From Candidatus Kaiserbacteria bacterium (GTDB lineage Bacteria; Patescibacteriota; Minisyncoccia; Phycocordibacterales; Phycocordibacteraceae), in contig JAHFMN010000003.1 of the NCBI GenBank assembly GCA_023264445.1, positions 18,421 to 82,420 of the forward strand: DNA of 64,000 bases, given 5' to 3'. Position numbers and translations under genes: made by a program. This document shows positions 4,756-53,423 of the stretch, in pieces. The notes beneath the pieces were generated by a model. It did no database searches. It had not been told where the DNA came from and saw only the letters and a program-made list of their open reading frames with translations. Position 1 is the first letter of the stretch; each line of letters begins with the position of its first letter.

Positions 4756-4810
4756 AGATGAGTCGATATCCACTATAACCTGCGCCCGCTGACAAAAGAA
4801 ACCGCCCTCA

Positions 4811-5585: not shown

Positions 5586-6794
5586 CTATTGAACGACAAA
5601 TTCCACGACCTGTACTGCCCTCTCTGCGGCTTCCACTGCCTCCGCGCGCGAGGGTGCAAGCGCTATGACATAGCCCACGCGCGATGGATGATTCACTATT
5701 GCGGGAATTTCATCTCCTACCTGCACCCACGGATCGACTTTTTTGATGAACGGCATATTCCTGGCTTCGGTAAGTCCTCGAATTTCTTTGATGACGCCTG
5801 GGGACGGAAAGAAATACCGCTGCGAAGTTGCCATATGCTTCGTCGGGACAAAACGATTCTGATCAACGCTGTTGCCGACGGTCATATCAATGAGGATATC
5901 CACGATATCAACGCCGGTAGACCACGGTACTTTGTCATAGCAGAAGTTGCCGCCGGAGAGGCGCGCCGCTATTTCAATCACGTACGCCTTGCCGTCGTCG
6001 CCCATTACCATGTCTCCTTTTGCAGGCCCCCAATCAATGCCGAGCGCGCGGACCGCCTTTTCAAACTCTTCTTCAACCAATCTTTTCTGCGCAGGGGGAA
6101 GAACCGTCGGGATATCTCCGCCATCTTCAACGAGATGCGGAGTCGTCTTTTCTACGTTCTCGTAATTGCGGTCAGCAAAGCCGGTGCAATGGAATATATT
6201 GTCGTGCATGATGCCCTCGGTGCTCACTTGGAGCCCGGGAATGTATTGCTCGGCAATCAAGTCTCCGGAATACGAATACTTCCTCGCGTACTCAAATGCC
6301 CACGAGAGGTCCGTATCGGCAGTGATGCGCAGGACGCCGCGTGCGCCGGAATTATCCACCGGTTTCAGCACCACCGGGAAGCCGGCATGTTCGATAAAGG
6401 ACTGGAGATCCGCAAGTGTCCGCACCGATGTGAATTTCGGAATGTTCACCCCGCCGCGTTCAAGTTCTTCTTTCATCTTGAATTTCTGCACGCACGTCTG
6501 CGCGACTGAAAGCGGGATATGCTTGACGCCGAGGTATTCCGCCGCCGCAGAAACGCAATGCGGGATGTCGCTTGCAATGGTCATGACGCCATCAATCTTT
6601 TTCTTGTACCCCTTCAGGAACTCAAGGATAGCCGGTACGTCTCGGGTGCTGACCAGATAGAATTCATCGGCATGCGTGGCACCGGCAGCCTTCGGATTCA
6701 TATCAAACACGACCGTATGTATGCCTTTTTCCTTCGCACGATCAATGGCATTCACTTGTTCTATCCCCGCTCCGAGAATCAGAATGGTTTTCAT
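5586..6794 (-). CDS. ATP-grasp domain ligase
   Basis: 402 aa: MKTILILGAG...VVLKPVDNSGARGV...EQYIPG...YVIEIAARLSGG, the typical ATP-grasp pre-ATP-grasp/central/C-domain layout. Confidence 0.75.
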   Translation of the reverse strand: MKTILILGAGIEQVNAIDRAKEKGIHTVVFDMNPKAAGATHADEFYLVSTRDVPAILEFLKGYKKKIDGVMTIASDIPHCVSAAAEYLGVKHIPLSVAQTCVQKFKMKEELERGGVNIPKFTSVRTLADLQSFIEHAGFPVVLKPVDNSGARGVLRITADTDLSWAFEYARKYSYSGDLIAEQYIPGLQVSTEGIMHDNIFHCTGFADRNYENVEKTTPHLVEDGGDIPTVLPPAQKRLVEEEFEKAVRALGIDWGPAKGDMVMGDDGKAYVIEIAARLSGGNFCYDKVPWSTGVDIVDILIDMTVGNSVDQNRFVPTKHMATSQRYFFPSPGVIKEIRGLTEARNMPFIKKVDPWVQVGDEIPAIVNHPSRVGYVIALAPSRAEAVEAAERAVQVVEFVVQ

Positions 6795-6795
6795 A

Positions 6796-7536
6796 CTATG
6801 AGAACAGCATACCGCCGTTTACGTTCAGCGTCTGTCCGGTGATGGATGCAGCAGAGTCCGAAGCGAGGAATGCGACTGCTGCGGCGATCTCCTCTGGTGC
6901 AGTCAATCGGCCGATAGGAATCTGCGCGGCCTTCTGCTTCCCTTCTTTTGAACCAAGCTCTTTTTTAATCATGTCCGTCTCGACGAGACCGGGAGAGACC
7001 GCGTTGCTCGTAATGCCATCTCGCGAAAAAAGCTTCGCGAGCGAGTGCGTAAAGTTGATGAGTCCTGCCTTCGCCGCGGCGTAGTGCACCTGGCGCATGC
7101 CGCCCCACTGCCCGCCGATGGAGACGATATTGATGATGCGGCCCCAGCGCTTCTTCCGCATAGCAGGTACGGTCTCTTGAGCGACAATGAATGCGCCGCG
7201 CAGATTCGTCTCCAGCATGCGGTTCCAGTCAGCATCCGTGATGCGTTCAAAGGGCTTCTCGTCCGCGATGCCGGCGTTATTGACGACGATGTCCGGAGTC
7301 TTCCCCCATTGCTTTCGTACTGCAGCAAGCGCTTTCTTTATTGAAGCTCGACTGCGGATATCGACGCGCACGGCAAGCGCTTCCGGATACTTTTTCTCCA
7401 ATTCCTCCGCACCGTTCTTATGGAGGTTATACCCGCAGGCAACGGAATATCCCTCTGCAAGCAGCTTGCTCGCGACGGCATGTCCGATGCCGCGGCTTGC
7501 GCCGGTGACGAGTGCCAGCTTAGTGTTCGTTTTCAT
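6796..7536 (-). CDS. SDR family oxidoreductase (FabG-like ketoreductase)
   Basis: TGASRGIG cofactor motif, NNAG, catalytic YAAAKAG (YxxxK). Confidence 0.85.
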   Translation of the reverse strand: MKTNTKLALVTGASRGIGHAVASKLLAEGYSVACGYNLHKNGAEELEKKYPEALAVRVDIRSRASIKKALAAVRKQWGKTPDIVVNNAGIADEKPFERITDADWNRMLETNLRGAFIVAQETVPAMRKKRWGRIINIVSIGGQWGGMRQVHYAAAKAGLINFTHSLAKLFSRDGITSNAVSPGLVETDMIKKELGSKEGKQKAAQIPIGRLTAPEEIAAAVAFLASDSAASITGQTLNVNGGMLFS

Positions 7537-7539
7537 AGG

Positions 7540-9285
7540 TTAATCGAACGATGACTCGGAATTCATGTCGTTCAGTTCTTTGCCGCCCATGAGCATAGGC
7601 AGGATGTCTTCCTGCGGATCTATCTCGCAGTGGATGAGCACCGGGCCTTTTCGTTTGAGCGCCTTCGTTATCTTTTCCTTTGCCCCGCGAACTGAAGGGA
7701 CGCTCACGGCATCGATGCCGTATGCGCGCGCGATGTCCGCGAAGTTCGGGTTGCGCTTACCGCCGGTTGCAGGATGCGACTTCCAGTTCTGTCGCTGGAA
7801 TTGCGCCACGATATTAAGAGCATGATTATCGAGGACAAGGATCTTGATATCGAGATTCCGCTCTGCGATAAATGCGAGCTCTTGTATGTTCATCTGGAAG
7901 CTCCCATCGCCCACTACGCAGAGCACCTTCGTGCGCGGGGCGGCCATCTTCGCGCCTATGGCGGCAGGAAGATCGAATCCCATCGTCCCATGACCGGAGG
8001 AAGTGAGGAGCTGACGTTCGGGATGCGAAAACGAAAAATGTCGTGGCACCCACATCTGGTGCTGGCCGACGCCGGTGGCAACGATGACATCCCCGGCGAG
8101 AGCATCGCTTGCCCATTCGATGACATGCTGCGGCTTGAGGTATGCGCCGCGCTGCTGCTCTGGCACGAGGGCGTGCGTCTTTTTCCATTCTTCAATGCTT
8201 GTGAGCCATGCCGTAGTTTTTCCTTTCGTTCGAGCCTTCTTGGAGAGAAGCGCATTGAGTGCCGTGAGTGCCTCGCCCACATCGGCATGTATTTTCAAAT
8301 CAAGCGGTACGCGGCTGTGGTCGAGCTCTTTTTCGTCCACATCTATGCGCGCAACCTTGCCTTGCGGCGTCATCCGCGCGGGCACACTGCCGGTCTGGCG
8401 GACGTGGAGCGTCGTCCCAAGCGCGATGACAAGATCAGCGTTGTAGAGAGCAAGATTCGCATACCGGCTTCCCACGTAGCCGCAGAGGCCGAGCGACAAC
8501 GGTTTATCGGAAGGGTACGCGCCCATGCCAGGGAGACTCATGGTCACTGGTATCGAGAAACGGTCTGCAAGAGAGCGCAATTGGCGCTCCGCGCGCGCCG
8601 CAATGACTCCGCCTCCGGCTAGAATGACCGGACGCTCGGCCTTCACTATCCAGTCCGCAAGCGTTGCCAGCTGTTTCTTCGGCAATGGCAGGCTTTTTGA
8701 TTTCTTTTTCGCAGGAGCTCGCACGATGCGAGGCGAAATGACGGCACGCTGGACGTTCATGGGAAGATCGACGACGACCGGACCTCCTCGCCCCTCTCGA
8801 GCAAGTGCAAACGCTTGCTCCATGACAGAGGGGAGTTCAGTTGGCTCTGTCACGAGCCATGCGGCCTTCGTGATCGGAGTGAGCACGTCAACCGTATCCA
8901 CTTCTTGAAAACCGCGCTGTTTGACGGGAATTTTCCCGCGCAAGTCGCTTGTCCCTACTTGTCCGGTAAGCACCACCATCGGCACATTATCGAAATACGC
9001 ATCTGCTATCGGCGTCACGGCGTTCGTCACGCCCGGACCTGAAGTGACCATGTAGACCGCCGGCTTCCCAGTCACCTTCGCATAGGCAAGAGCGGCAAAA
9101 CCCGCACCTTGTTCATTCTTCGGACAGATGATTTCTATATCCGTCTCCTTCTCTACTACGTCCAAAATAGGCCCAATGGTCCCGCCCGGATAGATAAATA
9201 CTTTCTCCACGCCATTGCGCTTGAATGCTTCTACGATCGCGTGCGCGCCGAACTGGTCGCGCTTTTGTGTGTGTTTCTTTTTCAT
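7540..9285 (-). CDS. Thiamine-pyrophosphate enzyme of the acetolactate synthase large-subunit family (YerE-like candidate)
   Basis: 581 aa with Pyr domain, central domain and TPP-binding domain (GDGSFQMNIQELA...NN TPP motif). ATGA overlap with the downstream Zn-ribbon methyltransferase. Confidence 0.8.
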   Translation of the reverse strand: MKKKHTQKRDQFGAHAIVEAFKRNGVEKVFIYPGGTIGPILDVVEKETDIEIICPKNEQGAGFAALAYAKVTGKPAVYMVTSGPGVTNAVTPIADAYFDNVPMVVLTGQVGTSDLRGKIPVKQRGFQEVDTVDVLTPITKAAWLVTEPTELPSVMEQAFALAREGRGGPVVVDLPMNVQRAVISPRIVRAPAKKKSKSLPLPKKQLATLADWIVKAERPVILAGGGVIAARAERQLRSLADRFSIPVTMSLPGMGAYPSDKPLSLGLCGYVGSRYANLALYNADLVIALGTTLHVRQTGSVPARMTPQGKVARIDVDEKELDHSRVPLDLKIHADVGEALTALNALLSKKARTKGKTTAWLTSIEEWKKTHALVPEQQRGAYLKPQHVIEWASDALAGDVIVATGVGQHQMWVPRHFSFSHPERQLLTSSGHGTMGFDLPAAIGAKMAAPRTKVLCVVGDGSFQMNIQELAFIAERNLDIKILVLDNHALNIVAQFQRQNWKSHPATGGKRNPNFADIARAYGIDAVSVPSVRGAKEKITKALKRKGPVLIHCEIDPQEDILPMLMGGKELNDMNSESSFD

Positions 9286-10253
9286 ATCGCTTCTCGTTTC
9301 CGCGCGACCCAGAAAATCCCGTTACCGGGCAACGCGAATGTCAGTATAAGGAAATTGAGGGGTTTGTATATCACGTAGCGCTTCAAGAGGGTCAATATCC
9401 GGTATAACCCGAGAAGGGCCTTTTTCGTTACCGTGTTCCCTTGCCTATCGATGAGCCGGTTCAGGCGGCTGCGGACGCCGAAACAGAGCGTCGGGGCAGC
9501 ATAGAGGGGGATGGTGCCGATAGAGAGGATGTCGAAACCAGAGCTCTCAAGCAGCCGCGTGAGCGCCGGCACGGTGAAATAATTGAGGTGCTCCGGCGGG
9601 ATGAGGTGATACCACTTCCTTCCGCGAAGCCGCGCGTATACGCCGCCGAAATTCGGCACGCTCCCGACATAGAGGCCGCCCGGGACGAGTCTATGCGCGA
9701 CTTCGCCCACATGCTCTCGCGGCTCCCGCACATGCTCAAGTGTCATGATTTCAGTTATGACGTCGAAATCATGAACGGCAACGTCCTCAATAGTTCCGGT
9801 CGTGATATCTACTCCTAAATGCTTCGCTCCGATGCGCTTGGCATCCGCATCCATATCCACGCCGTGCGCATCGAATCCGCACAGTTTTGCGGCATAGCAC
9901 ATGAATCCGTGGCCGCAACCGACGTCAAGAAGCCGCTTCTGGCCCGATGAACGGTACGGTTCTATAAGGGAAAGCAGAGTGAGGTTATCTTCTATGACGC
10001 TCTTGTTCGTATCGATGAAATCCTTCGCATCTCCGTGCTCATAGATATTTGATTTTGTCCTGCTCTCGCGATTCGCAGAGTAAAACTCAGCGAGTGCCGC
10101 GGCAGAAGGTAGAGGAGATACGGTCGCGAAGCCGCATGAGGCGCAGGTGATGAGGTCGTATTGCTGATTGTCGATTCCCGTAATCCCTTCGTAGGTCAGC
10201 CTGAAGTCGCCCCCAGAACACACAGGACAGACCATGGGATAGGTCCGGCTCAT
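9282..10253 (-). CDS. SAM-dependent methyltransferase with N-terminal Zn-ribbon (TylCIII-like sugar C-methyltransferase family)
   Basis: MSRTYPMVCPVCSGG...CASCGF then LLDVGCGHGF SAM motif. The long 5' ORF extension overlaps the upstream gene, so the start was set at 10253, 8 nt after the upstream stop. Confidence 0.7.
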   Translation of the reverse strand: MSRTYPMVCPVCSGGDFRLTYEGITGIDNQQYDLITCASCGFATVSPLPSAAALAEFYSANRESRTKSNIYEHGDAKDFIDTNKSVIEDNLTLLSLIEPYRSSGQKRLLDVGCGHGFMCYAAKLCGFDAHGVDMDADAKRIGAKHLGVDITTGTIEDVAVHDFDVITEIMTLEHVREPREHVGEVAHRLVPGGLYVGSVPNFGGVYARLRGRKWYHLIPPEHLNYFTVPALTRLLESSGFDILSIGTIPLYAAPTLCFGVRSRLNRLIDRQGNTVTKKALLGLYRILTLLKRYVIYKPLNFLILTFALPGNGIFWVARKREAI

Positions 10254-10260
10254 CGCGAAG

Positions 10261-11514
10261 CTAGCGCTTGCAGGCGCGAAGCGCCAAGTCTGCCTGGCGC
10301 ACGGCATTCTTCCGCAGGTGCGGAAGCTTCTTTTCAATAGTCGCAATGACGTTCTCCCGGTCATCCACGATCGCATCGAAATTCTTGCTAAGCGATTCTT
10401 TCGTCCAAAACTCCGGTTCAATGAGATAGCCCCCGAGCCAAATCTCATCAAATGCGGGCCGGACGTGCCAGCTCCCGCCAAGCGGCAACACGGGAACCTT
10501 GTGCACGGCGGCAAAAATAGCGGAGTGGCGGCGATTCGATACATGCGCCCAGAGCTTCGGGAAAATCGAGAGGATAGCGTTCAGCTTCACGCGATCCTCC
10601 AAGCAGTGGAAGGCGTTCTTATGCTTCATCCGCTTGCGTATGTCGTGAGCGATCGGACGATCATCTTCCATCGCGTGGTCGATGTCGTAGGTGCAGTTCG
10701 GTATGGAGAGGATGACTGCGTCATGTGTTTCAATGATGTGGTCGCAGAATGCCGCAAGTTCATCCGCTGTTGTTCCCCAGAAGCGTTCGCTCCACTGCCA
10801 ATAATTGTGGCGGATATTGAATCCGATGACGCGCTTCCCTTTCGGCAGCTGTGCAAAAAACTTTTTGGCCGCTGGAGACATATCCTTCAGCGGGACTGGA
10901 TTCAGCGCCCATGCGGTATCGGAGACGACAACGCAATTGTCAGTCCTGATGCCAAGCTCATGGAGCCGCGTAAGCGAGAAATCTTCCCGAAGCGTGACGA
11001 GTGCCGCATTTTCAATGCAATATTTCGTCACCTCCTTTGCATACGATGAAATGAGCTTCGAACCCATATGGATGGAGTACAGCATGACCGGCGTGCCGAC
11101 GAACTTAGCATGCGTAATGAGGAGCGCGGCATAGGAAGCAAGGCCGCGATTGAAGGAAAGCGTTATCTCCTGGAACGGATCGCCGCCGATGATGAGGAGA
11201 TCCGATTCGCGGATAATGGCGTCGAGTGCGTGCAGATGGCCGGTCGGGTCGTTCTTATTGAGCCCGTTGAACCATCTCCCTTCAGAGGCGGCTTTCGTCT
11301 CGTGCTCGAGCCCGACGACGACTCGGTCGCATCCATATTCTTTTGCGAGCCGCTCGTTCTTATGGCGGGCGACCCAGGTGATGTGGCAGTTCGGCTCGCG
11401 AACGCGCAGTTCGCGGATGAGCACCGAAAGCAGCGTCTCATCTCCGGCATTCTCAATGCCGTACACGCTCGTGCCGACGATAGTTATCTTTTTCCGCTTC
11501 TTGGAGGTAGCCAT
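10261..11514 (-). CDS. Polysaccharide pyruvyl transferase (CsaB/WcaK family)
   Basis: 417 aa; N-terminal GTSVYGIENAGDE motif and overall PS_pyruv_trans-like architecture. Confidence 0.65.
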   Translation of the reverse strand: MATSKKRKKITIVGTSVYGIENAGDETLLSVLIRELRVREPNCHITWVARHKNERLAKEYGCDRVVVGLEHETKAASEGRWFNGLNKNDPTGHLHALDAIIRESDLLIIGGDPFQEITLSFNRGLASYAALLITHAKFVGTPVMLYSIHMGSKLISSYAKEVTKYCIENAALVTLREDFSLTRLHELGIRTDNCVVVSDTAWALNPVPLKDMSPAAKKFFAQLPKGKRVIGFNIRHNYWQWSERFWGTTADELAAFCDHIIETHDAVILSIPNCTYDIDHAMEDDRPIAHDIRKRMKHKNAFHCLEDRVKLNAILSIFPKLWAHVSNRRHSAIFAAVHKVPVLPLGGSWHVRPAFDEIWLGGYLIEPEFWTKESLSKNFDAIVDDRENVIATIEKKLPHLRKNAVRQADLALRACKR

Positions 11515-11535
11515 AAATAAGAGGGTGCCGGCTGC

Positions 11536-12786
11536 TTAATGCTTCATAAGCAGATCACGTACAGCGTCGGTAGCATACGCGCATTTTCCTTCCTGCACAA
11601 GCGCACTCCGATGAACGTGTTCCGCATCCCACCCGGCGAATGCATCCGCGAGATGGGTGAGCGATGTATCCGAAAAAAGGCGATCGAATGATTTCTCATC
11701 TACGAACTCTTTCGGCGCCATGCCCAAGCTCCGATACACCTTGCCGACATGATCCTTCTCGCCGAAGAGATAGAAAGGAACCTTGAGGAGAGCCGCATAA
11801 ATGCCGCTGTGCCGTCTGTTAGACACGACATATTTTGCGTGTCTGATGCAGTAGAGAAGCTCCTCGCTTGAGAGATAGAAATCGATCGGCACGATGCTTT
11901 CCTTTTTCTCACAATGCTCGTATATCTCGTGCTGGAAGTTGATGTCGCTCTCCCAATAGTCATCCAGTTCGTATGCGCAGTGAGGAACGAGAAGGACCTT
12001 GCATCCGTAGTGTGCGGCAAGCCGATCCGCGTATGCGGCAAATTGCGCGGCATATGTTTTGGAAGTGGCGTCATTCCAGAGCCAGTAATACCCGCGCACG
12101 GTGAGTGCGATGTACTCACCGGAGGAAAGGCGGGAAAATACCTCCGAAAGTTTCTTCGACTCTATGGGCTTCGCATGCCGCAGAAGGGCGAACCCGCTAT
12201 CCGCAGAAGAAACTACCTTCTCCGATGCTGTCCCGTACGTCTGTATGAGTTCGTCTTTCGTATCGTCCTCGCGCGTCGTTATGACGTCGGCATTGTCCAG
12301 GCAGAATTTCGTGAGCGCAATGCCGTATTCGGACGTCGGTCGGCGGCCGAGATGGATGCCGAAGAGGATGACTTTCTTCTGCAGGTATTTCGCGAGCGTA
12401 ATGAGATTCGCCGTATATGGCAATATCCCGCGAAAGGGCTCCGACGCCATATTGGTATTGGAATCGTCAAATGGGTCCCCGCCGATCATGAGCGCATCGG
12501 AACTTGCGATTTCCTCCCGAATAATCCGCAGATGCTCCGTAGAATCACCGGCATTAAATCCGTGGAATCGCTTGCCGGCGCTTTCCGCTTTTGACGGGAA
12601 GTCCAGATTCCGAACGCTGCGGACGCCAAATTGCGCCTCCACCTCTTTCCCTGGATGGCGGCAGATGAGTGTGACATCAAGATGAGGCATAGCTTCTCGC
12701 ATCCCGCCAAGAAATGATTGGAGCATGGAATCATCGCTTATATTCTTGAGGCCGTAAACGCTTGCGCCCGCTATGGATAATTTCAT
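11536..12786 (-). CDS. Polysaccharide pyruvyl transferase (CsaB/WcaK family), tandem paralog
   Basis: 416 aa; GASVYGLKNISDD and IGGDPFDD motifs collinear with the preceding gene. Confidence 0.65.
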   Translation of the reverse strand: MKLSIAGASVYGLKNISDDSMLQSFLGGMREAMPHLDVTLICRHPGKEVEAQFGVRSVRNLDFPSKAESAGKRFHGFNAGDSTEHLRIIREEIASSDALMIGGDPFDDSNTNMASEPFRGILPYTANLITLAKYLQKKVILFGIHLGRRPTSEYGIALTKFCLDNADVITTREDDTKDELIQTYGTASEKVVSSADSGFALLRHAKPIESKKLSEVFSRLSSGEYIALTVRGYYWLWNDATSKTYAAQFAAYADRLAAHYGCKVLLVPHCAYELDDYWESDINFQHEIYEHCEKKESIVPIDFYLSSEELLYCIRHAKYVVSNRRHSGIYAALLKVPFYLFGEKDHVGKVYRSLGMAPKEFVDEKSFDRLFSDTSLTHLADAFAGWDAEHVHRSALVQEGKCAYATDAVRDLLMKH

Positions 12787-12792
12787 GGAGAG

Positions 12793-13941: not shown

Positions 13942-13957
13942 ATGCGATACCACAATC

Positions 13958-16224: not shown

Positions 16225-16227
16225 ACA

Positions 16228-17544: not shown

Positions 17545-17548
17545 ATCA

Positions 17549-19368: not shown

Positions 19369-19372
19369 AAGA

Positions 19373-21549: not shown

Positions 21550-21574
21550 GTAGACGGGCGGAAAGGTTATCTTG

Positions 21575-22564
21575 TTATTTCTTTTTTTGCGCATGTTTTT
21601 TTATTTCTTCCAAGAGTTCCACGACGGCGCGACCGTTCTCTACGCCGCTTTCTGGCCGTTCACGATTCGTGAGGTACTGGGCGGCGCGATCAAGGGCATG
21701 TGCGGGAGCTCCGCGCCGTACCGTCGCGCGTGCGCGGTCAAGCGCGCGCTCGCCTTTGTAGGAAGATGATCGGGCGGGCGTCTCAATGAGCGCATCGCTA
21801 TTATCGAGCAATGCCCGCTCGCCTTTGCTTCCTAGTATGCGGATATCAAATATGCCGTACGCCTTCTGGTCGATACTTTGCAGGACAACGCGAGTGCCTG
21901 TTTTTGTCTCCAGAACGGCGTCTACACATGAATCGCCCGATGGATGCATCGCCTTCGGATTGGTCCGTGCCCACACTGCGTGCATGTCTTCGCCGAGGAG
22001 ATACTGAAGCGCATCCAATGCATGTCCACCATTATTGTATAACCCGTTGCTGTAGTAACAGGTCACCTGCTGTATGGTGCCGAGCGCGCCCGAATGAATA
22101 TCGCGGCGCACGCGCGCCATAAGCGGTGAGAATCGCCGCTGATAGTTGACCACGAACACTCCTTTGTCTTTGGAAACCATGCGAGCTATGGCGCGCGCGT
22201 CACGTGCGGTTTCTGCAAGCGGTTTCTCGCAGACGATAGCGCGCACGCCAGCACGAAGGCATTCCTGGATAGGGACGAGACGGACAGACGGCGGCGTTGC
22301 AATCACGACGATATCAGGACGTTCTTTCTGCAGGCACTCGCGCACGGAACGGTATCGCCCTACTTTGGGAAAAATCTTTCCCGCGCGCAGGAGCGCTTTT
22401 GCGTTCGTATCAACGAGCGCAACTAATTCAGTCTTCGGGTTTGCCTGTGCGACGCCGGCATGGCTCGCCGGCTTTCTCCGAAGTGGTTCCGCTTCGTAGA
22501 GCACTCCCACCCTTCCGCATCCGATGATGGCGACGCGATACGGGGCTGGTGTGTTGCGGCGCAT
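21575..22564 (-). CDS. Gfo/Idh/MocA family NAD(P)-dependent oxidoreductase
   Basis: VAIIGCGRVG Rossmann motif, EKP motif (IVCEKPLA), 329 aa. Confidence 0.8.
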   Translation of the reverse strand: MRRNTPAPYRVAIIGCGRVGVLYEAEPLRRKPASHAGVAQANPKTELVALVDTNAKALLRAGKIFPKVGRYRSVRECLQKERPDIVVIATPPSVRLVPIQECLRAGVRAIVCEKPLAETARDARAIARMVSKDKGVFVVNYQRRFSPLMARVRRDIHSGALGTIQQVTCYYSNGLYNNGGHALDALQYLLGEDMHAVWARTNPKAMHPSGDSCVDAVLETKTGTRVVLQSIDQKAYGIFDIRILGSKGERALLDNSDALIETPARSSSYKGERALDRARATVRRGAPAHALDRAAQYLTNRERPESGVENGRAVVELLEEIKKHAQKKK

Positions 22565-22566
22565 GA

Positions 22567-23571
22567 CTACGGCGCAAAAAGGTTCTTAGCTTCTTTTTGC
22601 GAAAGGAGGAATTTCTTATTGTTGCTCATATAGAGGAATGATTTCGGGGCGGAGCGGTAGCGCAAGAGCCAGTCGGCATTGCCTCCCCTGTGCACGATGG
22701 CGAACATGCGCGGGAGCTCGCACGTGCGATGCACTTCGTACTGCGTGAGCAATACCTCGTGCAGTTTCTCGCCCGGGCGCATACCGATGACTTGCACTTT
22801 GCATTCCGGCGCAAGTAGTTTGACGACATCCATGATGGGCATGTGCTTCATTTTCGGGACGAAGATCTCGCCGCCCTGCATGAGCGCGAGCGCTTCGAGC
22901 ACGATGTCCATCACCGACTCGATGCGTATCCAAAATCGCGTCATCTCCTTATGCGTCACGGTGATGGTGCCAGTCTGTTTCTGTCGGTCTATGAGCTCCA
23001 CGAACGAGCCCCGGCTGCCAATAACGTTGCCGTAGCGTATGACGCTGAGCGCGGTGTTGCTGTTGTCGCCGACATATGAATTTGCCGCGATGAAGAGCTT
23101 CTCTGCGGCCATCTTGGTCGCACCATAGAGATTGATGGGCTCGACCGCCTTGTCGGAAGAAATAAGTAATACCTTAGACACCTTCTTATCAAGCGCCGCA
23201 TCTATGACGTTCTTGCTTCCGATGATGTTCGTCTGTATCGCCTCAAACGGATTGTATTCGATGGAGTCCACACGCTTCAGCGCCGCCGCATGCACGACGA
23301 TGTCCACTCCCTCAAAGGCACGCCGGAGACGCTCCGGATCGCGGATGTCGCCGATAAAGAAGCGCAGGCGCGGTTCATCGCGATGCAGGGCGGCGAGCTC
23401 GCTCTGCTTGAGCTCATCGCGGCTAAACACGATGATCTTGGCGATGCCGGGGACTGCCGAGAGGCGCTTGATGAAGGCACGACCAAAGGTACCGGTGCCC
23501 CCCGTGATAAGGATGGTCTTGCCCTTCAAAAAGTCAGTGGGGGCTTGCCAGGAAGCCTTTTTTATAGCCAT
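22567..23571 (-). CDS. pseB: UDP-GlcNAc 4,6-dehydratase (PseB/FlaA1/PglF-like, Polysacc_synt_2)
   Basis: ILITGGTGTFG...YGATKMAAE (YxxxK), 334 aa, typical short PseB/FlaA1 length. Confidence 0.85.
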   Translation of the reverse strand: MAIKKASWQAPTDFLKGKTILITGGTGTFGRAFIKRLSAVPGIAKIIVFSRDELKQSELAALHRDEPRLRFFIGDIRDPERLRRAFEGVDIVVHAAALKRVDSIEYNPFEAIQTNIIGSKNVIDAALDKKVSKVLLISSDKAVEPINLYGATKMAAEKLFIAANSYVGDNSNTALSVIRYGNVIGSRGSFVELIDRQKQTGTITVTHKEMTRFWIRIESVMDIVLEALALMQGGEIFVPKMKHMPIMDVVKLLAPECKVQVIGMRPGEKLHEVLLTQYEVHRTCELPRMFAIVHRGGNADWLLRYRSAPKSFLYMSNNKKFLLSQKEAKNLFAP

Positions 23572-23634
23572 AGTCGCGGCATTGTAGCTCGTATGCTTAT
23601 AAAACTCAATAATTCTGCCTTTGGTTGCCTGAAG

Positions 23635-24645
23635 TCAGAAATCCTTTACGCCAATCCATAGAGGCACAGGGTCGCCGCCGAGATGCCGCTTGAAGTCCGC
23701 AATGGCGGCCTCTTTCTCCGTACTGCCGGTTTGCCATCCCATATCGTACCGCTCGAACCCTCGGCGTTTGAGCTCCTGCATGATCCGCCACTGAATGAAC
23801 TGGCCGATGCCGCGCAGATTGCGATACTGCGGATCGGTCGCAGCCATGCCATAGGAAGCGCAGCGCTTATATATTGTGACGAGTGCTCCGGAAAGATAGC
23901 CGCCTGCATGCTCCTGACGGAGGAGCGCCAGGAGCGCGTGCCCAGAGCGCACGCGCCCGAGCAGCTCTCGCGTGCGCTCTGGCGACCCTATCGGCCGACC
24001 CGCTGCTAACGCATAGAGGTCGGTGAATGCTGTCCACGCCTCTTCGGTGATCGTATCGCTATCAAAGAAATCTGTCTTGTATCCCTGTTTCTCCGCAAAC
24101 GTAATATCCGACCTATTTCCTTTGGAGACGCGTGAACGGAGTGTGTCCTCGTCGTGGCGCAGGTCCATGATATACGTCACCGTGCTCGTATCGGCATATC
24201 CGAACTGGAGAAAGGGATTAGTGGCGAATGCGGCATCAGTAAGCGGGTCAATGAACATCCTGCTGCGCGCGATGCCGAGCGTGAGCGCGAGTCGATCAAT
24301 CTCTTTCATGCATGCGGCGTAGATTGCTGCCTGTTCACTCGGAGAGAGTGCGTCAGCAAGCGCAGGCGAAGGGTTCGGCAAACTGTGCGTATCGGACGGG
24401 CGTGTATTGACGCTGAAGGCGAATTCCCGTCCCTTCGTAGCGATGAGTGGCTCAATGATGAGAGGCGCGATGGCGACAAGTGTTGCTCCTTCTTTCATGC
24501 CGAAAGAACGGTCCTCGCTACTCTCATCTAGCGCGAGCGCCGCGCGCCGACCGTCGCTTCGGTGACGTATCCAGGCTCCGGGCGACGCGTCGCAGAATGC
24601 ATCCCATTGTGCATCCCCTATATCCTGATGTTGAACGACCTCCAT
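23635..24645 (-). CDS. FemAB-family/GNAT-fold acyl- or aminoacyl-transferase
   Basis: 337 aa from MEVVQHQDIGDAQWDAFCD; two GNAT-like halves typical of FemABX proteins. Start chosen 5 nt after the upstream stop. Confidence 0.5.
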   Translation of the reverse strand: MEVVQHQDIGDAQWDAFCDASPGAWIRHRSDGRRAALALDESSEDRSFGMKEGATLVAIAPLIIEPLIATKGREFAFSVNTRPSDTHSLPNPSPALADALSPSEQAAIYAACMKEIDRLALTLGIARSRMFIDPLTDAAFATNPFLQFGYADTSTVTYIMDLRHDEDTLRSRVSKGNRSDITFAEKQGYKTDFFDSDTITEEAWTAFTDLYALAAGRPIGSPERTRELLGRVRSGHALLALLRQEHAGGYLSGALVTIYKRCASYGMAATDPQYRNLRGIGQFIQWRIMQELKRRGFERYDMGWQTGSTEKEAAIADFKRHLGGDPVPLWIGVKDF

Positions 24646-24649
24646 AGCG

Positions 24650-25558
24650 CTATCCCTGCGTTTTGCGTACGATCTGGATGATTCGCTCGATATCGCGGAC
24701 CGAAAGGGCCTGGTGGCACGGAAGCGCGACACATTCGACGAAGCGAGGATTGAGCATATTGCGATTGACATCGAAGTGATACACACCGCTTTCAAATCCT
24801 GCACGTTCGAGAGCGCGTGCGACCAAAGCATTTTTTGCGCCGCAAAAGAGCGGCACCATCCAAGGCACGACCGTGCTATTTGTCATGAGCTTTTCTTCTT
24901 TTGTGCCCCATACCGCCTTCCGTAGCATTTCGAAATTTCGACGACGGACCTCGACTGCTCCTTTTTTGTACTCAAGGAGAGCGACGGCTTTCGCGGCAGC
25001 CGGACATTTCGTCAGTCGGTCATAGACCGCATAAGCGCGCGCCACCTCCGTGCCGCCCTTACGCAAGCCTTGCATTACCTCGCGTTCGCAGCGCTTGTCG
25101 TGATGACGATACTCGCGTGCGACGAACTGCCGCAGTTTCCTATCTTTTGCGGAGAGCGCGCCGCCGACCGGCGTTGAAAAGAATTTCGAGAGACTCCAGA
25201 GAGCCACTCTGCCGAACGTCCCGACCCGTTTGCCGTTATAGGTGCTATCGATAGTATGCGCACAGTCTTCGATGAGGTATAGCTTGTGTGTGCGGGCAAA
25301 CTTCTCTATCGCTTCCATGTGTTGCGGGAATCCCCACTGGTGGTACACCATAAGCGCTCGGACTTTCTTGTTCATCACCATTGTCGGGAAACAATAGGCA
25401 TGCATTGTCATGTACACCCAGGTGCCGAGCCATTCGGACACGAGCACCTGCGCGCTCTTGTCGTTGAGTACCCTTTCGTGCCGTAAGAAGCGCAGTATGA
25501 CCGCAATAGCCGATTTTCCCGAAAAAATATACTGCGTTCCTTTTGGGAAAGGGCTCAT
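24650..25558 (-). CDS. Short, divergent DegT-family PLP enzyme (lacks about 40 N-terminal residues)
   Basis: LIEDCAHTIDSTYNGKRVGTFGRVALWSLSKFFSTPVGG aligns with the DegT PLP-lysine region. No room for a longer N-terminus because of the upstream methyltransferase. Confidence 0.55.
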   Translation of the reverse strand: MSPFPKGTQYIFSGKSAIAVILRFLRHERVLNDKSAQVLVSEWLGTWVYMTMHAYCFPTMVMNKKVRALMVYHQWGFPQHMEAIEKFARTHKLYLIEDCAHTIDSTYNGKRVGTFGRVALWSLSKFFSTPVGGALSAKDRKLRQFVAREYRHHDKRCEREVMQGLRKGGTEVARAYAVYDRLTKCPAAAKAVALLEYKKGAVEVRRRNFEMLRKAVWGTKEEKLMTNSTVVPWMVPLFCGAKNALVARALERAGFESGVYHFDVNRNMLNPRFVECVALPCHQALSVRDIERIIQIVRKTQG

Positions 25559-26256
25559 GGCTTCTTCGCTGATATGCCGAGATATTCGACTTCCTGTGTC
25601 ATGTCTTTGTACGTGCGCAGTACCCGCTCGATATGGATATCAACGAAGCCAGCGGCCTTGAGCATCTTCTTCGCGAGCGGCGCAGTGAGAAAGCACGTGA
25701 TGCCGTTGTTTGGATATGGCACATCCTGATTCGGCGTGTTGTCGGTCGTATAGCGATCCAGCTTTTTCCCGCCGCCTTTCTTGAAATTGATGCTTGCCGC
25801 TCCCAAGTGCCAGCTGAAGAATCTTCCGCCCGGCTTGAGACAGCGGAAAATCTCCGCGAATGTCTGCTCATGACCTTTGAGCGTCGTGTGCTCTATAGAA
25901 AAGACGTCAACGATGGCGTCGAAGAAATTGGCCTTGTACGGGAGCACTCGCATATTGCCCACGCGCAGTGTCGCGCTCGTGCCATAGCTTTTGAGCATTT
26001 CTTTACAGAGTGGCAGCGCACTCTTGGCGATGTCCAGCCCATAGGCATCAAAACCCTCCCGAGCGATGACCCAGAGGTTCGCCCCGCTTCCGCACCCGAC
26101 TTCAAGTATGCGCGTCTTCTTGCGCTCGACTCTCGGGCGTGAGAAGTAATGCTCAGCTAGAAACTGAATCATCGGCTCGTTCGGATACCGGCGCTGGGAG
26201 GCGGATCCCCTCACCTTGAAATGCGCCTCAAACTCAAGATTATCGATGGTAGACAT
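25555..26256 (-). CDS. Class I SAM-dependent methyltransferase
   Basis: ILEVGCGSGANLW motif I; start at MSTIDNLEFE (26256). Confidence 0.75.
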   Translation of the reverse strand: MSTIDNLEFEAHFKVRGSASQRRYPNEPMIQFLAEHYFSRPRVERKKTRILEVGCGSGANLWVIAREGFDAYGLDIAKSALPLCKEMLKSYGTSATLRVGNMRVLPYKANFFDAIVDVFSIEHTTLKGHEQTFAEIFRCLKPGGRFFSWHLGAASINFKKGGGKKLDRYTTDNTPNQDVPYPNNGITCFLTAPLAKKMLKAAGFVDIHIERVLRTYKDMTQEVEYLGISAKKP

Positions 26257-26279
26257 TACGAGGTAGAATACAGCGGAAG

Positions 26280-26984
26280 ATGAAAAATCTCTATTGGGTC
26301 TTCTCCAAGCTCTCTCGGGTGAAGGATATCCCGCGGTACATAGTTGAACTGCCAAGCTACCTGCGAGGTTACGCATGCGCGACGACGCGGTGGGGAGATC
26401 GCATGAAGGTTCCCTTTCCGGAGTTCCGTTCGATAGTGGAGAAGGGATATATAACCGGGCATGGAGAAGAGGGAGTATACGAATATCTTGATTCGCACCT
26501 GACGGACAACGATATCTTCTTTGATGTGGGAGCGAACGCCGGATTCTATACGCTTCTTGCCAACCACAGGGGAGCGCGCGTCTATTCTTTTGAACCGTTC
26601 CCGAGCACGTTTGAGATGCTGCACGGAAACGTGCGCACCAATTGCAATGAAAAGCGCGTGACGATACTTCCCTATGCAGTCTCCGAGCATGAAGGTACCG
26701 TGCATATGCGCAAGATGCACACGGCAGGCGTCAACCTTGTTTCTCCGGACGGGAATGTACCGGTGCAGGCAATCAGCTTGGATGGATTCGATGTCGTGCC
26801 GACAGTCATGAAGGTGGACGTCGAGGGACACGAACTAAGCGTGTTCAAAGGAGCCCAGATTATGCTACGGAAACATATGCCAGCGATAATCGCGGAAGTA
26901 TCGCCCGAGTCCCGAGACTACCTCGTCTCGCTTGGCTATACGGCGACGCTCCTCGGCAAGACGAATTATCTCTTCAGCAGATAA
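26280..26984 (+). CDS. FkbM-family methyltransferase
   Basis: FFDVGANAGFYT...MKVDVEGHELSV, characteristic of Methyltransf_21/FkbM. Alternative start 26403. Confidence 0.7.
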   Translation: MKNLYWVFSKLSRVKDIPRYIVELPSYLRGYACATTRWGDRMKVPFPEFRSIVEKGYITGHGEEGVYEYLDSHLTDNDIFFDVGANAGFYTLLANHRGARVYSFEPFPSTFEMLHGNVRTNCNEKRVTILPYAVSEHEGTVHMRKMHTAGVNLVSPDGNVPVQAISLDGFDVVPTVMKVDVEGHELSVFKGAQIMLRKHMPAIIAEVSPESRDYLVSLGYTATLLGKTNYLFSR

Positions 26985-26987
26985 TTC

Positions 26988-28061
26988 CTACGGCAGACCG
27001 AAAAACTCCTTCAGTGAACGCTCGCGTTCAGCAAGGTAGCGGCGGAGGTATGTCGCATCCAGAAATTTTTCCATACTCCATACCGCGCGTGACATTCCAC
27101 CAGAAAATCCTTCCTTGAAATCACTGATGCTACGCTCCTTATCGCTCATAATGCGCGTAAACGAAGACGGGGATGGGTAGAGCGGCATGAGGAATTCGCG
27201 GACGTCGCGGCGCTCAAGCTCCTCAAGCGCGCGCAGACGCAGCATATGCCCCACACGCTTTGGAGCGAATGCTGGATCGATGGCGACCGAATTATCGAAT
27301 GCCGCATGCTTGTAAACGGATACGAGCAACATGCCTGCAAGATTACCGGTTTCCCTATCTCGCGCGCGCACGAAGAATGCTTCCCCGGCTCGCGCGAGAT
27401 CGGCCTGACGCGCGTAACTCTCCCGAGAGCGTACCTGTTTGCCCGAATCGAGCACGTGCAAGCGGTAATACATCTCCTCCGCATCAGCATCAACTGTATG
27501 CCCTTCGAGAATATCGAAATTGAATAGTGGGGAAAATTTCCTGTCATAGCGGCGATATCGCTCGCGCGTACGCGCCACAGCGCCTTGGACCTCTACCGCA
27601 TGCAGGAGTGTTTGCGTCGCGATGTAGTGATGCACCCGTGTTGCGCGTTCCACCCGTTCTTGCTCATCCGCACGCGCGATTGGTGCAAAAAAATTTATTC
27701 CGATACAGCCCGCGCCTGCGGCGCGGGCGCGGCGTTCAAGTTCAGCAAACGCAAAATCCTCCATCTCCTCCGTGACAGTGAGTGGCCATGGCAACATGCC
27801 GTAATACGCTGCTTCAACCCATAATCCACCATATCGTTCGCGACGCTGGATGATAAGCGGACAGAGTCCAATGGGGATCTCATTCTCGTATATGAAAAAC
27901 GAATGATCCTTTGCTTCGAACGATTGTCCCGCCGCGAGCACGTATACATGCCAGTGCCAAGTGTGCCAAAACCACGAGTACGGTGAACGTTCGACAAGCG
28001 AATCCCAGAGTGCCTGAGCATCCGGTACTTCGCTAACCTCGCGTGCGGTAAATTGAGCCAT
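26988..28061 (-). CDS. FemAB-like/GNAT-fold acyltransferase (second paralog)
   Basis: 357 aa; architecture and size similar to 23635..24645. Converges on the FkbM gene with a 3-nt gap. Confidence 0.4.
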   Translation of the reverse strand: MAQFTAREVSEVPDAQALWDSLVERSPYSWFWHTWHWHVYVLAAGQSFEAKDHSFFIYENEIPIGLCPLIIQRRERYGGLWVEAAYYGMLPWPLTVTEEMEDFAFAELERRARAAGAGCIGINFFAPIARADEQERVERATRVHHYIATQTLLHAVEVQGAVARTRERYRRYDRKFSPLFNFDILEGHTVDADAEEMYYRLHVLDSGKQVRSRESYARQADLARAGEAFFVRARDRETGNLAGMLLVSVYKHAAFDNSVAIDPAFAPKRVGHMLRLRALEELERRDVREFLMPLYPSPSSFTRIMSDKERSISDFKEGFSGGMSRAVWSMEKFLDATYLRRYLAERERSLKEFFGLP

Positions 28062-40197: not shown

Positions 40198-40228
40198 CAA
40201 CAAAAAAACGCCCCTCATACGAGGGGCG
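40198..40228. terminator. Bidirectional intrinsic terminator between convergent genes
   Basis: A-tract caacaaaaaaa, 8-bp GC stem cgcccctc/gaggggcg with atac loop. On the minus strand the hairpin (containing the rSAM stop codon) is followed by a T-tract. Confidence 0.65.
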
Positions 40229-53417: not shown

Positions 53418-53423
53418 ACGGGG

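Follow-up and report, generated by a model that had tools for sequence, protein, structure and literature searches.

The 64,000-nt window analyzed here, positions 18,421 to 82,420 of contig JAHFMN010000003.1 from a Candidatus Kaiserbacteria genome of the Candidate Phyla Radiation (CPR), carries what is, by its gene content, an operon for a nonulosonic acid of the pseudaminic acid (Pse) type. Four genes that a first-pass annotation had flagged in this DNA, encoding an ATP-grasp ligase, a class III aminotransferase and two FemAB-like transferases (Fem1 and Fem2), fall into three conserved modules of the operon: a cassette that contains the ligase (module A, positions 5586-10253; all coordinates are window positions), the two transferases with a short DegT-like pyridoxal phosphate (PLP) enzyme beside PseB (module B, 23635-28061), and the aminotransferase near the cytidylyltransferase (module C, 14560-19404). 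Our favored reading, to which we assign a probability of about 0.5, is that these modules make a heavily N-acylated, methylated Pse derivative. A bolder and clearly more tentative proposal is that they represent a PseH-independent branch of Pse biosynthesis, in which the N7 acyl group would be built by a thiamine diphosphate (ThDP)-dependent carboligase and a ketoreductase and set by the ATP-grasp enzyme, and would in this CPR lineage be elaborated by two tRNA-dependent FemX-like transferases and an extra transamination, the cassette itself having been acquired horizontally.

The pseudaminic acid core of the operon

Gene families were assigned with Pfam and NCBIfam scans, with 50 long open reading frames (ORFs) of the window scanned against Pfam, and related loci fetched for comparison carry labels such as L001, L063 and L149. 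One long glycan operon extends over 777-34152 on the minus strand, and more glycosyltransferases reach to ~52 kb; the family scans recognize >15 glycosyltransferases in the window, along with ArnT-like GT-C enzymes and an ABC exporter. Because the same gene calls are present on independent metagenome contigs and homologs occur at 50-83% identity, these are real genes and not chance ORFs. The first-pass annotation had placed its four genes, which all lie on the minus strand, correctly and with the right family labels, as Pfam and NCBIfam matches and the gene calls of relatives confirm, and its count of four PLP enzymes also stands (PseC, a second DegT-family aminotransferase, the short DegT-like enzyme and the class III aminotransferase; Table 1).

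The locus is assigned to the nonulosonic acid type because PseC exceeds its equivalog cut-off, the PseB model is the top match of the neighboring 4,6-dehydratase, and a NeuB-family synthase and a cytidylyltransferase are present. The dehydratase also matches Polysacc_synt_2 (E = 4e-90). The synthase scores 268 bits with the NeuB model and 253 with the PseI model (PseI cut-off 340), both below cut-off. The cytidylyltransferase (CTP_transf_3, E = 4e-31, 109 bits) is fused to an aldo-keto reductase (Aldo_ket_red, E = 1e-27), two proteins that are encoded separately in most related loci, and at 37 bits with the PseF model (cut-off 206) it is not PseF-like. The window thus shares PseC, a PseB-like dehydratase, a NeuB-family synthase and a cytidylyltransferase with the canonical PseB-PseC-PseH-PseG-PseI-PseF pathway, and departs from it in the non-PseF-like cytidylyltransferase, in the presence of three accessory modules, and in having neither PseH nor a recognizable PseG. 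No PseH family was found among the window ORFs scanned, PseG gave no TIGR03590 match, and tblastn with the Bacillus thuringiensis PseH and PseG proteins returned 0 matches in the window. Profile alignment (hhalign) to PseG or to the PseG-like family described below gave a probability of ≤1.3% for each of three proteins of the window, a 323-aa and a 256-aa conserved protein and a 608-aa glycosyltransferase. Neither flagellin nor Maf was found among the window ORFs scanned. With no PseH-type acetyltransferase found in the window, the earlier suggestion of non-acetyl N-acylation remains a reasonable expectation.

A carboligase, ketoreductase and ligase cassette

The ATP-grasp enzyme combines an ATP-grasp fold (PF02655 ATP-grasp_3, E = 1.7e-11, 44.9 versus 23.2 bits) with C-terminal domain 2 of the L-amino-acid ligases (PF18603 LAL_C2, E = 8e-21, 74.5 versus 29.4 bits), the two features that define the LAL family. 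Its best relative in the PDB is the L-amino-acid ligase BL00235 (3vot, 95 bits), and BacD is also among its best solved relatives. Housekeeping identities as PurK, PurT or biotin carboxylase were rejected at ≤42 bits (~34 for biotin carboxylase), which upholds the first-pass reading on this point. The closest relatives (70-76% identity) are labelled Kaiserbacteria or Parcubacteria, and two more at 76% come from bins labelled Saccharibacteria and Bacteriovoracaceae, in keeping with a CPR origin of the window. The loci in these two bins, L009 and L010, match each other over 15.9 kb and have equal per-gene identities to the window over all 12 genes that they share with it; at least one of these two bins was probably misassigned. 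More broadly, relatives 64-76% identical occur in CPR bacteria and Alphaproteobacteria, and relatives at 35-41% in many other phyla.

Next to the ligase lie a FabG-like short-chain dehydrogenase/reductase (SDR), an acetohydroxyacid synthase (AHAS)-like ThDP enzyme and a methyltransferase that uses S-adenosylmethionine (SAM). The reductase exceeds the cut-off of the FabG subfamily model NF009466 (247 bits versus 222), has a YxxxK motif at residues 152-156, and co-occurs with the ATP-grasp gene in most loci. The ThDP enzyme, in which a GDG...N motif spans residues 459-487, has AHAS catalytic subunits as its best PDB relatives (~360 bits). An identity as the biosynthetic AHAS was rejected: its score with TIGR00118 (528 bits) is under the cut-off of 538.35, and it stands in a glycan operon beside an SDR and a methyltransferase with no small regulatory subunit. 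In related loci, one to three methyltransferases precede the ThDP gene.

This arrangement is retained across great phylogenetic distances. Alphaproteobacteria, including Rhizomicrobium, keep the order methyltransferase, ThDP enzyme (581 aa), SDR, ATP-grasp, short NeuB and aldo-keto reductase, with identities to the window of 64-69% for the ATP-grasp enzyme, 64-69% for the SDR and 61-64% for the ThDP enzyme. The triad is thus 61-69% identical to that of Alphaproteobacteria (Rhizomicrobium and Stellaceae; L004-L036), yet NeuB is 31-36% identical and PseB and PseC, where present, 30-46%. As judged from these sequences, the pattern suggests that the cassette was horizontally transferred between very distant phyla. 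At 35-56% identity the triad occurs in Bacteroidota, Verrucomicrobiota, Desulfocapsa, Chloroflexota, and Gamma- and Betaproteobacteria, in the order ThDP enzyme, SDR, ATP-grasp, NeuB; it is usually accompanied by NeuB and often stands beside PseB and PseC. Where the AHAS-like gene is absent, including in a Kaiserbacteria relative and on plasmid pDCAR1 of Solidesulfovibrio carbinolicus, a split transketolase replaces it; the two parts (~278 and 310 aa) precede the SDR and ATP-grasp genes in L008 (Parcubacteria GW2011_GWA1_56_13), L037, L038, L040, L044, L058 and L061. The ThDP partner is interchangeable even among close relatives, and some ThDP enzyme is a near-constant partner of the ATP-grasp gene in loci that extend far enough. 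From this near-constant partnership it follows that the two-carbon-transferring ThDP enzyme, the ketoreductase and the ligase form one functional unit.

A Methylobacter locus (L149) shows the cassette in a complete setting. Its genes encode, in order, PseB (539 bits, cut-off 408), PseC (576, cut-off 423), PseF (335, cut-off 206), a methyltransferase, the AHAS-like enzyme, SDR, ATP-grasp, a short NeuB, a 328-aa protein, a GH57-like protein and flagellin; there is no PseH in this locus. The 328-aa family is PseG-like, aligning with B. thuringiensis PseG at 97.2% probability (hhalign, E = 4.6e-11) and having a GxGH motif in common with it. All Pse steps except PseH acetylation of the 4-amino group are therefore covered in this locus, and the cassette is the sole chemistry left unassigned. 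From this we infer N-acylation of the PseC product by the ligase, with an acid that comes from the ThDP enzyme and reductase together with the methyltransferase. In the cps locus of Enterococcus hirae, an ATP-grasp protein 34% identical to that of the window stands beside a 4,6-dehydratase, a DegT aminotransferase and an initiating transferase, and no acetyltransferase is annotated in this gene run.

Two further proteins accompany the cassette in other lineages. The GH57-like protein (~650 aa) occurs with it in 26 fetched loci, often directly after the PseG-like gene (for example L149 13083-15056, L150 13080-15068, L004 1602-3539 and L061 15230-17200), and neither the window nor its CPR-like relatives have it. 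In 21 loci a 583-aa tetratricopeptide repeat protein, which may be a FlmG-like flagellin glycosyltransferase, divergently adjoins the alphaproteobacterial cassette (L004-L007, ~3542-5293, minus strand). The conserved protein directly downstream of the window ligase (Table 1) has homologs only in CPR-like loci and a few unassigned metagenome contigs (62-81% identity in L008-L011, L085 and L098).

The cassette resembles a flagellin modification operon of Shewanella oneidensis MR-1, sfmABCDE (SO_3261-SO_3265), which encodes a NeuB of 290 aa, an IlvB-like ThDP enzyme of 581 aa, a 3-oxoacyl-ACP-reductase-like protein of 255 aa, a SAM methyltransferase of 395 aa and an ATP-grasp protein of 412 aa (PMC3765264). 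The complete five-gene set lies within 5586-13941 of the window (NeuB 382 aa, ThDP enzyme 581, SDR 246, methyltransferase 323, ATP-grasp 402), so that the two have the same five gene types at near-identical sizes, and it is on this likeness of architecture that their putative orthology rests. All five sfm genes are needed for normal flagellin modification, and the ATP-grasp mutant is still motile and retains a smaller modification (PMC3765264). The S. oneidensis glycan contains a Pse-like unit of 274 Da, which has one acetyl group and a basic nitrogen, as well as a nitrogen-free 236 Da unit (C9H16O7) with up to two methyl groups (236-264 Da), and the genome has PseB and PseC with no clear PseH, PseG, PseI or PseF orthologs (PMC3765264). 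The sfm operon thus works with PseB and PseC to give a Pse-like sugar that bears one acetyl group and an extra methylated substituent. The window cassette differs from it in belonging to a CPR bacterium, in gene order, in the absence of a flagellin gene from the window, in the insertion of two pyruvyl transferases, and in its long, divergent NeuB with a SAF domain. The plasmid collection contained other useful ATP-grasp loci, none from Shewanella. By analogy, a hydroxy acid is a more likely donor for the ATP-grasp enzyme than an amino acid, because the only characterized system with this gene set adds the nitrogen-free C9H16O7. Given the near-constant ThDP and FabG-like partners and this nitrogen-free moiety, the first-pass notion of the ligase as an enzyme that attaches an amino acid by itself calls for revision.

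The FemX-like pair, the class III aminotransferase and other genes

Fem1 lies just over and Fem2 below the Pfam FemAB threshold. Fem1 matches PF13480 (37.8 bits, cut-off 22) and PF02388 FemAB (33.6 bits, cut-off 24), and Fem2 is a weak match by hidden Markov models (PF00583, 22.0 versus 20.7 bits; TIGR04421, 48.7 versus 250; no PF02388 match). The two are 23% identical over their full length (BLASTP E = 7e-15). The Fem1 family is very small, with 17 word-index matches, the one named match being from a Parcubacteria genome and several others standing on contigs equal in length to those with the ATP-grasp homologs; relatives of Fem2 number 428 among 1.84 billion representatives, and all 10 of those sampled have TIGR04421 (FemAB_IMCC1989) as their best match, below cut-off.

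Structure models place both proteins in a fold of two GCN5-related N-acetyltransferase (GNAT) domains. The AlphaFold 2 model of Fem1 (mean predicted local confidence, pLDDT, 91.3) matches Staphylococcus aureus FemX (E = 7e-16) and Weissella viridescens FemX (TM score 0.70), and also Sba18 and Sbb17, aminoacyl-tRNA-dependent peptide synthases crystallized with the amino sugar streptothrisamine; FemA and aminoacyl-phosphatidylglycerol synthases are further matches, and acetyl-CoA-binding tandem GNATs rank lower. The Fem2 model (pLDDT 87.5) has W. viridescens FemX as its best PDB fold (E = 2.8e-14, TM 0.66-0.69). With TM scores of 0.66-0.70 to a FemX-type double-GNAT fold, these are not unrelated proteins of unknown function, and the FemAB label of the first-pass annotation is upheld. 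Designed TIM barrels that topped a search of the PDB with the Fem1 family profile were traced to one helical stretch and discarded as an artifact, and the search was redone with the C-terminal domain only.

Both paralog families have an invariant Phe-Lys pair close to the C-terminus (Fem1 Phe318-Lys319, Fem2 Phe315-Lys316); compared at the sequence level, it aligns weakly (E = 0.2) with the FK-GFGG motif of Sba18. The catalytic site to which this pair may correspond is Lys305 in FemX and Phe328 and Lys329 in DhpH-C, and Orf11, a Gly-tRNA-dependent enzyme, aminoacylates an amino sugar (PMC12945691). Like the FemABX enzymes, including the Orf11/Sba18 type (PMC12945691; PDB 1ne9, 6snr, 9wqy), Fem1 and Fem2 have a double GNAT fold, a similar size (~335 aa) and a C-terminal Phe-Lys, and like W. 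viridescens FemX they have no coiled-coil arm. Unlike the FemABX enzymes, to which they are only 13-18% identical, they belong to a surface-glycan operon and not to peptidoglycan or antibiotic synthesis.

The short DegT-like enzyme between them scores 31 bits with TIGR04422 and weakly matches PF27889, and keeps the PLP lysine (K125) and Asp98 in alignment with PseC. Homologs at 42-68% identity adjoin Fem1 and/or Fem2 homologs in the related loci examined that carry it. NCBIfam itself pairs PLP_IMCC1989 (TIGR04422) with FemAB_IMCC1989 (TIGR04421), a hypothetical equivalog pair in which, as in the window, a FemAB-like protein stands beside a short (~300-315 aa) DegT-related PLP enzyme. For Fem2, its relatives and the short DegT-like enzyme, NCBIfam offers no other match or none better, although the scores are far below the cut-offs (30-49 versus 250; 31 versus 75) and the window has two Fem paralogs. 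The block is conserved, because another Parcubacteria genome shares the order Fem2, short DegT, Fem1, PseB, GFO-type oxidoreductase, DegT, 323-aa protein, DUF218, PseC, methyltransferase, class III aminotransferase and cytidylyltransferase-reductase. Fem1 abuts PseB in all three distinct loci that show both (window/L063, L064/L065 and L082/L083), and the two genes are ~2 kb apart in L066. Within the module, a plus-strand FkbM gene is set into the minus-strand operon between Fem2 and a methyltransferase gene (Table 1); a minus-strand ORF overlapping it (26256-26831) has no family match and is uncalled, and is not a gene. Amino acid decoration, as first proposed for this locus, is best supported for the Fem pair and not for the ATP-grasp enzyme.

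The class III aminotransferase resembles glutamate-1-semialdehyde aminomutase. Its ORF extends to a GTG at 17574, and gene callers on related contigs use the ATG. Scores of 218 bits with the HemL model TIGR00713 (cut-off 527), 275 with PRK06209 (486) and 246 with GntE were obtained, and HemL was rejected on the first of these and on the context, which is a nonulosonic acid locus and not heme synthesis. Motifs point to Lys269 (FSKAMSNG) and Asp241 (DEIT) as candidate catalytic residues. Relatives number 323 in a metagenome scan, the best 80 of them at 59-83% identity. In loci of at least 12 kb, the gene is accompanied by NeuB (36 of 38), PseB (32 of 38), PseC (30 of 38) and a cytidylyltransferase or aldo-keto reductase (21 of 38). 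A cytidylyltransferase of ~255 aa is its commonest immediate neighbor (28 of 43 loci), and a separate aldo-keto reductase lies nearby in 13 loci. Locus L150 joins this module to the ligase cassette, with DegT, aldo-keto reductase, cytidylyltransferase, class III aminotransferase and three methyltransferases followed by the ThDP-SDR-ATP-grasp-NeuB-PseG-like set. This co-occurrence and adjacency mark the enzyme as a common, conserved and uncharacterized accessory of Pse-type loci that is tied to the activation step; speculatively, it acts on a carbonyl of the free or CMP-linked sugar or of a substituent, with the reductase as redox partner. The methyltransferase gene between PseC and the class III gene, whose product weakly matches the Pse-associated methylase TIGR03587 (39 bits), has the same position in L064. 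The four flagged genes had been described as unusual in glycan loci. That description is apt for the Fem pair, a small family, and not for the ATP-grasp and class III enzymes, which recur in Pse-type loci; the aminotransferase in particular is no oddity there but a highly conserved neighbor of the cytidylyltransferase.

Other genes of the window suggest additional modifications. A GFO/IDH/MocA oxidoreductase, weakly matching UDP-GlcNAc 3-dehydrogenase (51 bits), forms a triplet (19373-22564) with the second DegT aminotransferase and the 323-aa protein, which has no detectable family and no PDB sequence match and is unrelated by hhalign to PseG or the PseG-like family. The triplet, in which the third protein measures 323-343 aa, travels with PseB and NeuB and is syntenic in L064, L066, L073 and L079; in L066 it lies between NeuB and the cytidylyltransferase, and its DegT is the only sugar aminotransferase there. 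It may serve to aminate a different sugar, or it may be part of a variant route to the nonulosonic acid. The first-pass expectation of a poly-aminated glycan amounts to a count of PLP genes; of the results obtained here, none indicates more than the two amino groups that a nonulosonic acid of this type usually has. Two paralogous pyruvyl transferases, found at 64-81% identity only in the closest relatives of the window (L009-L011 and L079) and as weaker copies (26-30%) in L054, indicate from their sequences that the glycan is probably also pyruvylated. A large GT-B-like glycosyltransferase is a candidate nonulosonic acid transferase, its C-terminal domain weakly matching the BFO_1060 family (35.9 bits) and Epimerase_2; BFO_1060 is a homolog of Tannerella forsythia transferases for Pse and legionaminic acid derivatives (PMC5420450). 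Farther along, an ORF of 593 aa (34640-36421, minus strand) has no Pfam match and, besides the window, a tblastn match in one fetched locus. Among the glycosyltransferase genes downstream, a B12-binding radical SAM enzyme (40215-41711) and an FkbM methyltransferase (39364-40197) suggest that the glycan undergoes C-methylation or another kind of radical chemistry. Just past the glycan genes, a protein with lamin-tail and PKD domains and a TraD/VirD4-like coupling ATPase (52032-55190) may have surface or type IV secretion-related functions.

Table 1. Genes of the three modules, the Pse core and adjoining parts of the operon (window coordinates).
Feature	Position	Strand	Length (aa)	Family evidence and remarks
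Conserved protein directly downstream of ATP-grasp	4811-5581	minus	256	no family match
ATP-grasp carboxylate-amine ligase, L-amino-acid-ligase type (SfmE-like)	5586-6794	minus	402	
FabG-like short-chain ketoreductase (SDR, SfmC-like)	6796-7536	minus	246	adh_short_C2, E = 9e-62
AHAS-like ThDP-dependent carboligase (SfmB-like)	7540-9285	minus	581	three TPP_enzyme domains
SAM methyltransferase (SfmD-like position)	9282-10253	minus	323 (as called on identical contig L001)	Methyltransf_23, E = 4e-21
Polysaccharide pyruvyl transferase	10261-11514	minus		PS_pyruv_trans, E = 1e-21
Polysaccharide pyruvyl transferase, paralog	11536-12786	minus		PS_pyruv_trans, E = 4e-26
NeuB-family nonulosonic acid synthase with SAF domain	12793-13941	minus	382	PF03102, E = 3e-74, 250 bits
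DUF218 protein	13958-14575	minus		PF02698, E = 1e-14; also in alphaproteobacterial and CPR relatives
Cytidylyltransferase (KdsB/SpsF-like) fused to aldo-keto reductase	14560-16224	minus		CTP_transf_3
Class III (glutamate-1-semialdehyde aminomutase-like) PLP aminotransferase	16228-17544	minus	438	PF00202, E = 1.7e-46
SAM methyltransferase between PseC and class III gene	17549-18229	minus		Methyltransf_11, E = 6e-16
PseC, UDP-4-amino-4,6-dideoxy-N-acetyl-beta-L-altrosamine transaminase	18226-19404	minus		TIGR03588 equivalog, 476.6 bits (cut-off 423.5)
Conserved protein, third member of GFO-DegT triplet	19373-20344	minus	323	faint GT-B-type matches, E = 0.02-0.03
Second DegT-family sugar aminotransferase	20347-21594	minus		DegT_DnrJ_EryC1, E = 7e-92; PseC model 227 bits, below cut-off
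GFO/IDH/MocA oxidoreductase paired with second DegT	21575-22564	minus		PF01408, E = 3e-17
PseB-like inverting UDP-GlcNAc 4,6-dehydratase	22567-23571	minus		TIGR03589 top match, 384.2 bits, below cut-off 407.75
Fem1, FemX-type double-GNAT transferase	23635-24645	minus	336	
Short DegT-like PLP enzyme (PLP_IMCC1989-like)	24650-25558	minus	302	DegT, E = 2.4e-20, profile positions 109-308
SAM methyltransferase	25555-26256	minus	233 (as called on L063)	Methyltransf_25 and Methyltransf_11, E = 1e-18
FkbM-type methyltransferase	26280-26984	plus		Methyltransf_21, E = 2.9e-15; called on L063
Fem2, Fem1 paralog, FemX-type double GNAT	26988-28061	minus	357	
Large GT-B-like glycosyltransferase, candidate nonulosonic acid transferase	28077-29903	minus	608	

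Proposed pathway, competing explanations and significance

The chemistry that we propose takes its donors and acceptors from genomic context throughout. In module A, the ThDP enzyme would take two carbons of a 2-oxo acid and join them to an acceptor and the reductase would reduce the new keto group, after which the methyltransferase may O-methylate the product; the ATP-grasp enzyme would then activate the hydroxy acid as an acyl phosphate and couple it through an amide bond to the 4-amino group that PseC has made, which becomes N7 of the final sugar, thus taking over the acetyl-CoA-dependent role of PseH. Module B would place aminoacyl groups, probably from aminoacyl-tRNA, on a sugar amino group, which may be the one installed by the short PLP enzyme. 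In module C, the class III aminotransferase would act on a non-nucleotide carbonyl near CMP activation and yield an extra amine or an amine-bearing substituent, and the product would be handed to the neighboring glycosyltransferases and the ABC exporter.

Several observations weigh against this scheme. The ATP-grasp enzyme carries LAL_C2, a domain typical of amino-acid ligases. The window NeuB and the short NeuB found in sfm-like loci outside the CPR share only 31-37% identity and the 323-aa protein is not PseG-like, so that the CPR pathway may differ in further steps; moreover, PseH or PseG could be encoded outside the window, elsewhere in the genome. The comparison with S. oneidensis is itself imperfect: no named Shewanella protein is among the 120 mostly unnamed matches listed in each of two homolog searches (with the window ATP-grasp enzyme and with a distant-relative profile), and S. 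oneidensis mutants in the ThDP, SDR and methyltransferase genes show no modification at all, whereas some remains in the ATP-grasp mutant (PMC3765264), phenotypes not predicted by a simple scheme of making an acid and then ligating it. The 236 Da moiety (C9H16O7) also exceeds any acid expected from a single carboligation and reduction. For module B, most of the alignment behind the Fem2 model consisted of Fem1 relatives, and the FemX-like fold matches also include acetyl-CoA-using tandem GNATs (E = 1e-10 to 1e-12). With respect to the 236 Da unit, we considered and set aside a 2-reduced 3,9-dideoxy-nonulosonic acid from a NeuB-like enzyme, for which the formula fits and the single NeuB of the window and the mutant phenotypes do not.

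Four other explanations were weighed. A tentative possibility, which overlaps the other readings, is that the accessory genes decorate other sugars of a heteroglycan, for example a 3-amino hexose made by the GFO oxidoreductase and second DegT enzyme and acylated by the Fem enzymes. A GFO-type oxidoreductase and a DegT enzyme are the usual pair for C3 amination of UDP-GlcNAc-type sugars, and the weak match of the GFO protein to UDP-GlcNAc 3-dehydrogenase agrees with such a role; a 3-amino hexose could not, we infer, give a normal pyranose nonulosonic acid, and the >15 glycosyltransferases point to a complex glycan. However, L066 has the triplet between NeuB and a cytidylyltransferase and no sugar aminotransferase apart from its DegT, which suggests that the triplet serves the nonulosonic acid path itself, and Fem1 keeps close to PseB wherever both were seen, abutting it in three distinct loci and ~2 kb away in L066.

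It is rather doubtful that Fem1 and Fem2 are instead acyl-CoA-dependent tandem GNATs that replace PseH by adding N-acetyl or short acyl groups without recourse to aminoacyl-tRNA. The lack of PseH in the window, the direct adjacency of Fem1 to PseB, the acetyl-CoA tandem GNATs among the fold matches and the match of Fem2 to PF00583 would all suit such enzymes, but the best fold and profile matches are all aminoacyl-tRNA-dependent (FemX, FemA, Sba18/Sbb17 and aminoacyl-phosphatidylglycerol synthases), and the Phe-Lys motif of that class is invariant.

We consider it unlikely that the ATP-grasp protein is a true amino-acid ligase that builds a peptidyl-amido nonulosonic acid with the Fem enzymes, as its LAL_C2 score of 74.5 bits and its relatedness to BL00235 and BacD might suggest. 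A precedent for such a product is the type B flagellin modification locus of Clostridioides difficile, in which FemAB-like, ATP-grasp and aminotransferase genes make a peptidylamido sugar: in CDR20291_0244-0247, mutants of GT3, the ATP-grasp gene (0245) and an ornithine cyclodeaminase gene (0246) lose the terminal peptidylamido sugar, and attempts to mutate the FemAB-like and aminotransferase genes did not succeed (PMC5207246). The locus also counts in favor of the chemistry proposed for module B. It resembles the window by gene types, with FemAB-like, ATP-grasp and sugar aminotransferase genes together in a glycosylation locus, but its sugar is not a nonulosonic acid and it has no ThDP enzyme, SDR or NeuB. 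The ThDP and ketoreductase partners found in nearly all far-extending loci would be needless for an amino acid donor, and the glycan that S. oneidensis makes with the matching genes has no nitrogen beyond the two of its Pse core.

A ThDP enzyme and an SDR are the pair used for branched-chain sugars, as YerE and YerF are in yersiniose synthesis. That the cassette likewise puts a two-carbon branch on the 4-keto sugar made by the adjacent PseB and reduces it, with the ATP-grasp enzyme serving an unrelated later step, is quite improbable despite the loss of the whole glycan in S. oneidensis ThDP and SDR mutants, as for core-pathway steps, because the S. oneidensis core, C11H18N2O6, agrees with a mono-acetyl diamino nonulosonic acid that has no branch, most of these loci also have PseC, an enzyme that requires the very 4-keto group in question, and the role of PseH would stay unfilled.

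The favored reading, a heavily N-acylated and methylated Pse derivative, thus concerns a kind of sugar that is already known, made by enzyme sets that are uncharacterized, one of which appears to replace PseH. Nonulosonic acids that carry unusual N-acyl groups influence the assembly of flagella, recognition by the immune system and the adsorption of phages, and to our knowledge the enzymes that install non-acetyl N-acyl groups are mostly unknown. The Pse5Am7Gra of T. forsythia is such a sugar, with a non-acetyl (glyceroyl) N7 acyl group added before transfer, and the enzymes that modify it are stated to be unknown (PMC5420450); to the BFO_1060 family, which relates to its transferases, the 608-aa glycosyltransferase of the window scores 36 bits against 200. 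In the literature searched, we found no paper joining Patescibacteria with pseudaminic or nonulosonic acids, nothing on ATP-grasp and acetolactate synthase with pseudaminic acid or on FemAB with nonulosonic acids, and nothing on acetolactate synthase in flagellin glycosylation islands or on glutamate-1-semialdehyde with pseudaminic acid and flagellin.

Collectively, the comparisons connect the ATP-grasp enzyme with a widespread ThDP-reductase-ligase cassette that occurs where PseH is lacking, the class III aminotransferase with the step of the cytidylyltransferase, and the FemX-like pair with a short PLP enzyme. They provide three concrete, testable enzyme sets for nonulosonic acid diversification and a biochemical reading of the S. 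oneidensis sfm operon. If the PseH-independent branch is real, its 61-69% identity to Alphaproteobacteria would mark the cassette as horizontally acquired, and an ultrasmall episymbiotic bacterium would carry a peptidyl- or hydroxyacyl-decorated nonulosonic acid on its surface. That a CPR genome has so large a Pse-type glycan operon may bear on how these episymbionts present their surface.

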